The position numbers are program-made. A DNA stretch of 15,104 nucleotides from Candidatus Nanohaloarchaea archaeon (lineage in GTDB: Archaea; Nanohalarchaeota; Nanosalinia; Nanosalinales; Nanosalinaceae): positions 1 through 15,104 of the forward strand of contig JBLGBN010000019.1 of assembly GCA_047617745.1 (NCBI GenBank), in the 5' to 3' direction. Positions 12,001 to 15,000 of this stretch are shown here, one piece after another (the stretch's first letter is position 1; the number at the start of each line of letters is the position of its first letter).

Positions 12001-15000
12001 GTCGGTGTACGCAGTTGGGATAACGCTGGGAGTTATGTAGAAAAAATTAAAGTTTAGAGCCGGGAGGAGAGTTCCTCCTCCAGCTCACTTATTTTCACTC
12101 TTTCTTGCTCGGTTGAATCTCTGTCTCTAATCGTCACGGTCTCTGGTTCTTCTTCCAGTGTTTCGTAGTCGACTGTCACGCAGTAAGGAGTACCGACTTC
12201 GTCCTGTCTCCTGTAACGTTTACCGATGTTCCCGGTATCGTCATATTTGACCGAGAATCCGGCTTTCCGGAGGTTCTGCGCTACTTCCTCCGCTTTTTCA
12301 CCCATTCCATCTTTGTCCATCATCGGGAAGACAGCGACCTCTGTCGGCGCCATTTCTTCGCTTAACTTGAGCACTCTTCTCTCCTCGCCGTCCACTTCGT
12401 CCTCGTCGTATGAGTGAACCAGAACGGTATAGAGAAGACGATCGATACCGAATGAGGGCTCAACTACTTCCGGGGTGATGTGTTCGCCTGACTTCTTCAC
12501 TTCTTCTACGCTGAAATTGCATTTGTCGGAGGGTAATGTGTATTCCTCGCTGTCTACTTCCAAAGTGATTTCCTCTTTCTCAAAGGCTTCAGGGTTTTCC
12601 TCTGCCAGTTGTTCGAGAGCTTCAGCAATGTCGCCTGCTTTATCGCCGAACTCCGGTCCCAGATAGCCCATATTCGGGCTGACAGTTTTCTCCTCTACAG
12701 TCCTTGGTTCGTCATACTCCTTGAAGATCTTGAAGTCCTTCTCGTCACCGGAGTACTTGCTGTGCTTTGAGAGGTCGTAACAGCCTCTGTAGGCGAAACC
12801 TGTGACTTCTAGCCAGTCCTCTTCATTCCCTCCTATATCTGTCTCGGCGTCCCAGCAGTCTGAAGCGTAATGCGATCTTTCATCAGGGAGGTGCTGTCTG
12901 AACCGGAAACGATCCATATCGATTCCGAGATCCTTATACCACTGTTTGGCGATACCTAAATAGTAAGCGATCCACGGCGATTCAACAACGCCTTGCTCTA
13001 CTGCTTCCTCTACAGTCGCATGTATGTAATCGCCGTCTTCCTTATCCTGTTCTGAGATGGGGTAAAGTTTCAGCTCTATGTCCTTCACCCTTTCTAGATT
13101 TGGCTTGTCCTCTTCCGGGTCGATGAAATGCTCGAGTTCTGCCTGTGTGAACTCTCTTACTCTGACCAGTCCTTTCCTTGGCGAGATTTCATTTCTGTAC
13201 GCTTTTCCTATCTGTGTGATTCCGAACGGTAACTGGTTTCTCTCATACTCCTTTAGCCGGGGAAACTCTACGAAGATACCCTGCGCTGTCTCCGGTCGCA
13301 GGTATCCTGTCTGGGAGGAACCCGGACCGATCGATGTCTCAAACATCAGGTTGAAATCATCGACTTCGATACCTGAGAGATCTTCTCCGCAGCTTGGGCA
13401 TTCGAGATCGTGCTCTTTGATCAGGACCTCGATCTGTTCGGTTGATAACCCTTCTGCTTCATCCACCTCTGTGTGGTCTTCGACTAGGTGGTCGGCTCTT
13501 GTTGAGACCCCGCATTCAGGGCATTCGATTATCATATCGTCGAAGCCGTCGAGATGTCCGGATGCCCGGAAAACCTCTTCCTGCATTACGGTAGGTGCTT
13601 CTATCTCTCTGTGACCTAGTTCCCGGGAGAAAGTCTGTCTCCAGGAGTTCTCGATTTTTCTCTTCAGTTCTGCGCCTTCAGGGCCGAAGGTCTGGAACCC
13701 TCCTACACCTCCGTATGCTTCGGAGGTCTGGAAGAAGAATCCTCTTCTCTTCGATAGCTCGGCCACTTTCTCGCCTAAATTATCCATAGAAAACCACTTT
13801 CCGAGAGAAATTTTTATAGCTGGGACTAGAAGGTTTTGAAACTTTTTCAGATACTCTGTCGCGAGACTGCCGTTTCAGGCAGTCCAAAACATCCACCTTT
13901 CATTTGTAATAAGGCATTACAGGATCAGCTTTTTATTCCTGCTGGAAATCTTAAAAGCAAGCAAAGTAATACATGGTAATATACGTATGAAAAATATAGA
14001 GAACGCTGATGTAGAAGGGAAGAATGTTCTGCTGAGGACCGACCTCAATCTGCCGGTAGAAGATGGAGAGCCCCAGAAAACAGTAAGGTTTGAGAGATAT
14101 CAGGAGACTATAGAAGGACTCAGTGAAAGAGGTGCCAAGGTCGTTATTATGGCGCATCAGGGAAGGCCGGCTAGGAAAGATTTCCTATCTTTAAGACCTC
14201 ACTCAGAAATTCTGTCTGATTCAATTGATCAGGAGGTTGAGTTTGTTCCCAGCTTTTTCGGCCCTGAACTCGGTGAAAAGGTAGCCCGGATGGAGAACGG
14301 AGAGGTAGCTATGCTCCAGAATATAAGATTTCTTTCAGAAGAACTACAGAATGCATCGCCGGAGAGACATGCACAGGACTTCTTCGTCCAGAAAGCTTCC
14401 GACTACTTCGATATTTATGTTGACGACGCGTTCTCGGCCGCACACAGATCACATGGTTCGATGGTAGGTTTTACCGAAACTCTTGATTCCTACGCAGGTA
14501 ACATTATGCAGAGAGAGCTGGAAAACTGTTCGAAGGTAAGAGAAAACTTTGATGGAGGGCTGCTGGTCCTCGGTGGGGAAAAGCCTTCTGATCTCATAGG
14601 TATAATGGAGGAGCTGGCAGATAGTGTGGATGAGATACTGCTTGGAGGCATACCGGGAGAACTCGCGCTGAAGATAGAGGGCTTCGATCTCGGGAAGAAA
14701 AAAGAATGGATAGAGAAACATGGGTTGGACAGCAGAGAGGAAGAACTTGAGCAGGTTCTCAAAAAGCATAGAGACAAGATTACATTGCCGGATGACGTAG
14801 CAACTGAATCCGGAAATCACGGTGTTGAAAGTATCGGCGATGAACTGATCTGGGATATAGGGGAAAAAACCACGGAGGAATATGTTTCAAAGATACAGGC
14901 GGCGGAATCAGTTGTTATGAAAGGCCCAATGGGTGCCTTCGAGGAACACCCGGATGGAACGGAGAAAGTTGTAGATGCAATAGCAGATTCGGATAGCTTC

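Follow-up and report, generated by a model that had tools for sequence, protein, structure and literature searches.

The window, by which we mean the whole stretch of 15,104 nucleotides analysed here (positions 1 to 15,104 of a nanohaloarchaeal contig), carries glyS on its minus strand and a divergent phosphoglycerate kinase gene on its plus strand. The leader that precedes glyS contains the following features.

13987..15104, plus strand: phosphoglycerate kinase gene, divergent, continuing past the window end (match to a fused PGK/TPI model, below its curated cut-off)
13930..13935, minus strand: P1, TATA-like box about 32 nt before the leader AUG, putative leader promoter
13903, minus strand: leader AUG, read from the window sequence
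13847..13903, minus strand: frame-0 leader ORF of 18 codons, with its stop at 13849-13847
13893..13898, minus strand: internal Shine-Dalgarno (SD)-like hexamer RGGUGR, here AGGUGG, which can pair with the 3' end of 16S rRNA and lies 4 nt upstream of the P-site codon
13889..13891, minus strand: E-site spacer codon UGU (YRY among the copies)
13886..13888, minus strand: predicted slippery P-site codon UUU (elsewhere GUU, CCU or CCC), from the sequence and comparison across copies
13883..13885, minus strand: sensor codon X, GGA (Gly), cognate to the downstream synthetase, as in 150 of 150 copies from 11 synthetase types
13865..13884, minus strand: 7-bp hairpin beginning within codon X, typical of Gly-type leaders only (z-score against shuffles, compensatory changes)
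13780..13884, minus strand: +1 frame of 34 codons, beginning at 13884 and closed by a UAA (13782-13780) overlapping the start of glyS
13813..13818, minus strand: P2, second TATA-like box, 31 nt before the glyS AUG, likely a basal leaderless promoter given its recurrence in relatives
12054..13787, minus strand: glyS, glycine-tRNA ligase, 577 aa, AUG at 13787 (TIGR00389, E 3e-195)

An earlier note on this DNA had described an 18-codon frame 0 and a +1 frame ending on the glyS start, and the sequence bears this out. The 16S rRNA tail of this genome (on contig C1) is complementary to RGGUGR, with both variable purines facing an rRNA U. Before real start codons of the genome, the spacing between this hexamer and the AUG is 6-7 nt in 31 of 58 cases, whereas the cassette has it 4 nt from the P codon; the SD is thus compressed by 2-3 nt.

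A hairpin at or just 3' of X was found in Gly-type leaders, with z < -1 in 32 of 36 Gly copies. Fourteen two-sided changes were counted across 17 leaders, a count biased towards the hairpin because these leaders were picked for carrying it in register. This structure could act by slowing the ribosome or by competing for the vacant A site. It does not appear to be a general 3' stimulator, as the mean z is about 0 in the other 11 types, and whole leaders folded no better than shuffled sequences (z 0.19). Strong single hairpins were seen in some other leaders, for instance in a Leu-type copy on contig C8 of the same genome.

Distribution of the cassette and of its promoters

A strict 15-nt pattern found 226 exact copies, spread over 49 of the 50 genomes of the family; its reversed control found 4. 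For the census, loci were newly fetched for all exact matches in 49 relatives and duplicates were dropped by 65-nt context, which left 224 strict and 91 relaxed copies. Two further families of the order also carry the cassette; 60 loci from 9 of their genomes added 65 matches, many of them by chance, for a total of 380 copies. The full layout, defined by an AUG in frame 0, a short frame 0 and a +1 frame of at least 19 codons, was present in 217 of the 224 distinct strict copies; the other seven comprise two contig ends, two copies lacking an upstream AUG and three located inside coding genes. Over all pattern types, 306 copies bear the full layout. These copies are phylogenetically related, so that the counts overstate their independence. 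On this comparative evidence the cassette is real and conserved. The widespread occurrence and near-zero reversed control reported in the earlier note were reproduced, and its other counts, obtained from a set of different size, point in the same direction.

We also surveyed orthologues irrespective of the motif, taking the 30 best-scoring loci each for glyS, thrS and serS and dropping truncated ones. The cassette was found in 25/28 glyS, 20/29 thrS and 19/27 serS leaders; one of the serS misses is a contig-edge artefact, the copy being present as L138. It is nevertheless dispensable and freely lost, a point against the proposed sensor, since it is missing in 3 of the 28 glyS and 5 of the 29 thrS orthologues read. 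Among ileS and alaS orthologues a cognate cassette was found in 0/29 each, one further orthologue of each being truncated. Neither the motif census nor the reading of orthologues in relatives (glyS, thrS, serS, ileS and alaS) gave a cassette for Ala, Asp, Glu, Lys, Arg, Met, Asn or Gln. In the genome under study, ten other synthetase genes that were read, as well as alaS, lack the motif, in agreement with the earlier note. Two more copies occur on contig C8 (X = Leu and Val), away from synthetases, the Leu copy preceding genes for a chorismate mutase, a prephenate dehydratase and an aminotransferase.

Outside the phylum, a loose pattern stayed near control level in 145 other archaeal genomes. 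None of 20 loci read among these had the layout, and L566, the sole candidate, runs antisense to a gene. A scan of a genome collection returned at least 120 loci, 80 of them titled. Among the matches listed, the titled ones coupled to a synthetase belong to Nanohaloarchaea or archaea, and the titled bacterial ones showed no synthetase coupling. Viral contigs gave 18 matches, none near a reference gene.

Genome-wide, TATA-like words peak at -30 to -28 relative to the AUG. Just 13 of the 306 leader AUGs have an SD ahead of them, and TATA-like words are commonest 28-32 nt upstream, indicating that the leader is probably leaderless. A second TATA-like box recurs in 23/34 glyS and 13/26 serS leaders and is rare at other genes. 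At glyS it is still present in a relative without the cassette (L016). The earlier note had raised a second promoter as a caveat, and for glyS and serS this recurrence upholds it: both genes may be expressed largely without the leader. To judge from these boxes, glyS probably has a basal leaderless transcript from P2 in addition to the gated one.

Cognate codon, coupling and selection on the +1 frame

In all 150 copies with a synthetase starting within 400 nt, X encodes the amino acid of that synthetase, whereas shuffling gave a mean of 22.7 matches and a maximum of 40. Eleven types are represented: Gly (34 copies), Thr (30), Ser (26), Val (17), Tyr (15), Pro (9), Trp (6), His (5), Cys (4), Phe (3) and Leu (1). 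Within one type, X varies purely by synonymous codons. The reference set consisted of these 11 synthetases, and scanning 70 of 80 downstream clusters for protein families revealed no other synthetase. As the genomes are related, the evidence has to be counted by the 11 types and not by the 150 copies. This independent census thus confirms across Nanohaloarchaea the match proposed in the earlier note. Every one of the 306 copies with the full layout has a sense codon as X, mostly a common one (GGA makes up 41% of Gly codons; UAC 69%, CUG 31% and CAC 56% of theirs). Since X is not rare, a shift at this codon would need real starvation.

The coupling of the +1 frame to the synthetase start, also claimed in the earlier note, was equally clear. 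The +1 stop lies at most 15 nt from the start in 137 of 148 copies, compared with 0 for frame 0, 16 for the +2 frame and 36 for the shuffled null. It forms an AUGA overlap in 51 of the 148 and never falls beyond +11, and leaders are mostly 60-205 nt long. The 11 exceptions are serial first sites, trpS copies with a +1 ORF of 108-121 aa, and two copies at -16. An upstream AUG is in frame 0 in 147 of the 148 copies, against 3 and 4 for the other frames. A stop overlapping or close to the next start, as expected for a uORF that permits reinitiation, is therefore a property of the +1 frame only.

The +1 frame is poor in the amino acid named by X. Over 138 directly coupled leaders it contains 123 cognate residues, against 297.5 expected from the other leaders, and it is lower in 10 of 10 types; observed and expected values were 178 and 209 in frame 0, and 293 and 226 in the +2 frame. 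Such depletion is what a ribosome starved for X would need in order to reach the gene. In 42 Ile, Leu and Val leaders with no long gene directly next to them, the +1 frame instead ends in cognate codon runs, with means of 5.9 (Ile type), 7.2 (Leu type) and 3.4 (Val type) cognates in the last 12 codons. AUA is used once in 110 in these leaders versus 39% genome-wide. Trp leaders end their +1 frame in (Y/F)xxISS(V/I)KNxSW in 22 of 31 candidates (9 are without it). This terminal peptide is preserved through synonymous changes, its Ile being written with three codons; its Trp is invariant partly by construction, as the peptides were selected by pattern.

The P codon depends on the first base of X. 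Among the 306 copies, GUU precedes C in 65 and UUU in only 2, while UUU precedes A, G and U in 52, 66 and 98. The scarcity of UUU before C may reflect avoidance of a slip that improves pairing. For Gly and Val, a slip from UUU to UUG forfeits the third-position pair.

The orthologue survey brought out eight variants that fall outside the pattern, with CCU or CCC as P codon, GAU as E codon or an SD without GUG. A search for the CC type in 70 genomes gave 20 matches, of which 13 look like chance and 7 directly follow an AUG; in all 7 of the latter X is cognate (Thr in 4, Ser in 3), and coupling holds for 6. The UUU and GUU codons of the earlier note thus hold, but its range was too narrow and has to be extended to CCU and CCC. 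Without slippage, it is difficult to see why one slippery codon should replace another next to an X that remains cognate. CCC_U and UUU_U both figure as known +1 sites in a 2016 review (PMC5009743).

The scope of the cassette also proved wider than the synthetases to which the earlier note had tied it. It also lies upstream of trpB, trpE, ilvA, leuA and proC-proB, and in some 35 copies the +1 frame itself encodes a protein. Among these are His-gated proteins with a MazE/AbrB domain, an M20 peptidase, an aminotransferase, a glutamine amidotransferase, a GCS2-like protein, and GNAT-like proteins that measure about 240 aa and have 9 homologues, all within this group. Pfam domains (MazE/AbrB, GNAT, M20, aminotransferase) lie in the +1 frame with no AUG ahead. 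Homology starts 1-6 residues past the site, and the first AUG comes tens of codons further on. The M20 +1 frame aligns with unshifted orthologues from residue 2-6, at the site of the AUG of these orthologues. In databases the fused proteins are annotated from the GUG of the motif (P0001, P0004-P0008). Several downstream proteins of Leu, Ile, His and Trp copies had no Pfam or NCBIfam match; the one downstream of L078 gave a weak Atlas lead (0.82-0.88) to a COOH-NH2 ligase/GCS2-like family.

Tandem sites sort by the amino acid that they name. Sixty-two pairs lie at most 330 nt apart: 21 are in the same frame, 14 serial and 27 separate. Same-frame pairs, which share an open frame 0, carry different residues in 21/21 cases, all among Ile, Leu, Val and Phe. 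Serial pairs, in which the second site lies in the +1 frame of the first, carry the same residue in 14/14 (His, Trp, Pro, Ser). In 8 of these 14 the second site has its own in-frame AUG, and four His copies form the AUG inside the motif.

Proposed mechanism, known systems and alternative readings

The anatomy, the cognate match, the coupling geometry and the selection on the +1 frame can be read directly in the sequences. All the sequence-level predictions examined for the hungry-codon +1 shift put forward in the earlier note agree with them. From these we infer the slip itself, a response to starvation, reinitiation and the basal role of P2. The cassette is most likely a modular amino-acid sensor based on an SD-stimulated, RF2-like +1 shift at a hungry sense codon.

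The proposed sequence of events is as follows. The SD RGGUGR, one base, YRY, the slippery P codon and X would be met in this order, a few codons into a leaderless uORF. With the P codon in the P site, pairing between the SD and the 16S tail would be 2-3 nt closer than at initiation, priming a forward slip. When charged tRNA for X is plentiful, X would be read, and the ribosome would terminate at the frame-0 stop without ever reaching the gene. When it is scarce, the peptidyl-tRNA would slip to +1. Three outcomes are then predicted. At glyS in the window, the +1 ribosome would stop at or over the synthetase start and reinitiate. At other loci it would directly make the fused enzyme or regulator, or would stall at a cognate run or Trp-ending peptide, as a second checkpoint before biosynthesis operons. 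A change of X would reprogram the sensor to another amino acid.

The closest known system is that of prfB (RF2), with which the cassette shares an internal SD, a three-base spacer codon, an NUU P codon, a slow A site, an early frame-0 stop and the presence of sensor and effector in one site, as prfB is outlined in PMC5009743. The SD is compressed against a slip-prone P codon in both; here it lies 4 nt from UUU, GUU, CCU or CCC, in a deeper GGUGR register, and not at the bacterial 3 nt of RF2 (PMC5009743), a spacing that speaks against the proposal. The A site of prfB is a UGA in the RF2 gene, whereas here it is a sense codon naming an amino acid, and the genes downstream are synthetases and metabolic genes. 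Moreover, the present cassette is archaeal, serves many genes per genome and would often act by reinitiation rather than fusion.

SD, slippery P codon and hungry A codon together form a known recipe for +1 shifting in E. coli, according to PMC2377451. A slow sense A codon next to a slip-prone P codon is likewise common to Gallant's hungry-codon sites and to Ty1, ABP140 and EST3 (PMC5009743, PMC2377451). However, the yeast sites need a rare tRNA and have no tie to a cognate pathway, whereas X is common, by codon frequency, and matched to the gene. Starvation-induced shifting in E. coli is unprogrammed, while here X matches the controlled gene. The 2016 review knows of no productive starvation-induced hungry-codon frameshifting (PMC5009743), and a 2021 review counts a single programmed frameshift demonstrated in archaea, of the -1 type (PMC8211752). 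In ermCL and pheL, too, a frameshift in a leader ORF takes ribosomes into the spacer and activates the next gene (PMC5009743); the trigger is a ketolide antibiotic for ermCL and the event was judged incidental for pheL, and neither has an SD-primed cassette or codon programming.

Among leader-peptide attenuators (pheM, ilv and polycysteine types), the mycobacterial polycysteine sORFs are similar in being leaderless and regulon-wide, with cognate codons and the ribosome as sensor (10.1101/834739), and the Ile, Leu and Val runs described above resemble theirs. As presented in that preprint, their run is in frame and acts by stalling alone; in the cassette, one codon would gate a frame change, and runs occur in +1 only, frame 0 holding a single X in most types. 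In the run-type leaders, the next SD was paired at 0.78 versus 0.73 in shuffles, and more so in 16 of 29 leaders with an SD. The cassette would work like RF2 autoregulation combined with attenuator logic, yet it falls outside each known family.

In T-boxes, one specifier codon sets the amino acid that controls a synthetase or a biosynthesis operon, and the N of their UGGN follows the discriminator base of the tRNA. We considered a comparable binding of uncharged tRNA (CCA end on UGG, X as specifier), since the GGUGG of the motif resembles the T-box bulge, together with polymerase slippage on the U run, which is 4-6 long at many sites. This pair of explanations is hardly credible. The base after UGG is A in most copies for all 12 amino acids, and hence does not track the discriminator; UGA replaces UGG in 21/306. 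The cassette has no Stem I or antiterminator and its codon must be translated, Rfam gave no match at gathering level (a weak gltS hit, E 1.5), and the fold of the leader is that of shuffles (z 0.19). As for polymerase slippage, the U run is only 2-3 long in 121/306 copies and absent in the CC variants. Another reading keeps the same sensor and is compatible with it, but makes the output transcriptional: +1 ribosomes would cover the leader past the frame-0 stop and block FttA-type premature transcription termination, the start overlap being secondary. The region past this stop is G-poor (G 0.17, U 0.29, C 0.26), and the run-type Ile, Leu and Val leaders end 40-60 nt ahead of the next ORF. We hold this to be very improbable as the main output, as the +1 stops overlap the start at -1, -4/-5 and -10 (51/148 AUGA) far more often than coverage needs, an excess that points to reinitiation.

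The two remaining readings do without starvation-induced slipping, and both are unlikely. In the one we regard as slightly the less far-fetched, the ribosome pauses at the hungry X and the +1 frame is initiated separately, at the GUG of the motif or at a UUN codon. This would account for a cognate X and an open +1 frame; nearly all copies have the GUG in the +1 frame, databases start there, and the codon 5 nt past the SD is UUG in the window. Against this, a ribosome at X would be expected to cover both the GUG and the UUN codon, and the GUG sits within the SD and has none of its own. Entry by initiation at the GUG or at an SD+6 NUN codon, which the earlier note had left as an option, fares poorly: the codon 5 nt past the SD is UUG in 66/306 copies, the only ones where a UUN start is possible, and UUU, UUC and UUA in 121, 67 and 52; the spacing at real starts of the genome peaks at 6-7 nt, and a thrS copy without GUG (L503, GGCGGA) is still coupled. 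Such initiation also leaves unexplained the slip-prone P codons and the avoidance of UUU before C. The other reading, which we consider improbable as well, takes the +1 shift to be constitutive, a leak at a set ratio that keeps expression down; X would be a bystander or a weak modulator, and glyS would be expressed mainly via P2. P2 is indeed conserved before glyS and outlives loss of the cassette, and frameshifting at E. coli pheL was judged incidental (PMC5009743). A leak fails, however, on the 150/150 match, the cognate depletion, the cognate runs and the split between serial and same-frame pairs.

Among its parts, the SD, the slippery codon and the coupling are familiar; the general one-codon amino-acid sensor is new to the literature searched, no description of the cassette having been found in open-access full text and bioRxiv, with subscription journals mostly uncovered. 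The sensor probably represents a new cis-regulatory class, a one-codon-programmable +1 shift for at least 12 amino acids. It would include regulons (synthetases, biosynthesis operons, fused enzymes), OR gates in which sites for different amino acids share a frame, and serial gates in which one amino acid is named at two or three shifts in a row, in some cases with stalling as a second step. Such a class would stand beside T-boxes and attenuators as their counterpart in archaea. It would also be the first case of hungry-codon frameshifting under starvation put to productive use, and would speak for +1 shifts stimulated by an SD on archaeal ribosomes. It would offer an explanation of how synthetases are controlled in host-dependent DPANN archaea with tiny genomes, which lack T-boxes and many transcription factors. 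It would further call for start corrections in genes annotated from the motif GUG, and provide a compact, swappable sensor. The five highly expressed ncRNAs of PMC10266531 appear not to be these leaders, the sole motif-like match in its supplements lying in the SRP RNA. Since cultured members with RNA data exist (PMC10266531), the proposed +1 shift is directly testable.

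First +1 codon and synthetase leaders

Of the 36 cassette copies whose sensor codon X is Gly, 33 have Asp as their first +1 codon, and Trp copies invariably carry Gly at this position (63/63). This pattern suggests selection for an abundant competing tRNA. Alignment A1 of the synthetase leaders revealed an AAAACC-like word conserved 15-45 nt upstream of the synthetase start in many glyS, thrS, serS and valS leaders. Upstream of glyS in the relative G002 (locus L016), an inverted Trp cassette takes the place of the Gly cassette, and the second TATA box is retained.

Proteins of predicted Trp-, His- and Leu-gated loci

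The Trp-gated operon contains two cassettes: a leader with a Trp-ending peptide is followed by a GNAT-like protein, predicted to be frameshift-dependent, and by a coupled M20 peptidase. This GNAT family has nine homologues, all of the same kind. Proteins of 108-122 aa, predicted from the +1 frame only, are also encoded 5' of trpS or trpB, with no match in Pfam. A His-gated double shift is predicted to yield a MazE/AbrB-domain protein; the genes downstream vary (GNAT, nucleoside hydrolase, hisS). Leu-gated loci encode 475-aa proteins without a family match, for which a weak Atlas lead points to COOH-NH2 ligase/GCS2-like folds.

Loci of each type
Trp-gated two-cassette operon: L038, L103, L104, L150, L153, L184, L273, L297
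108-122 aa +1-frame proteins: L068, L128, L157, L186, L190, L239
His-gated double-shift MazE/AbrB: L032, L058, L167, L175, L198, L246, L321
Leu-gated 475-aa proteins: L078, L099, L118, L162, L171, L208, L283

Run-type leaders and C8 cassettes

In run-type leaders, whose +1 frame ends in a run of cognate codons, the +1 stop is repeatedly followed by a second, short ORF whose start is rich in A and C (L054, L072, L074, L087, L221, L223, L232, L253). This ORF is possibly a coupling module; IlvA carries a fused N-terminus of the same kind. Contig C8 of this genome holds two further cassettes:
G000:C8:16826 (L658), X = Leu
G000:C8:28787 (L659), X = Val

Leu- or Val-rich runs close their +1 frames. 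Each cassette then has an SD and a 25-29 aa ORF with many Thr/His/Asn/Gln residues; this ORF overlaps the gene after it. Downstream of the Leu-type cassette lie a 193-aa ORF and the genes for chorismate mutase, prephenate dehydratase and an aminotransferase.

Other ORFs of the window

Two further ORFs were noted by eye only:
8052-8408, minus strand, HypA-like zinc-finger ORF
6402-7274, minus strand, protein in which a twin-arginine-like motif follows a coiled coil
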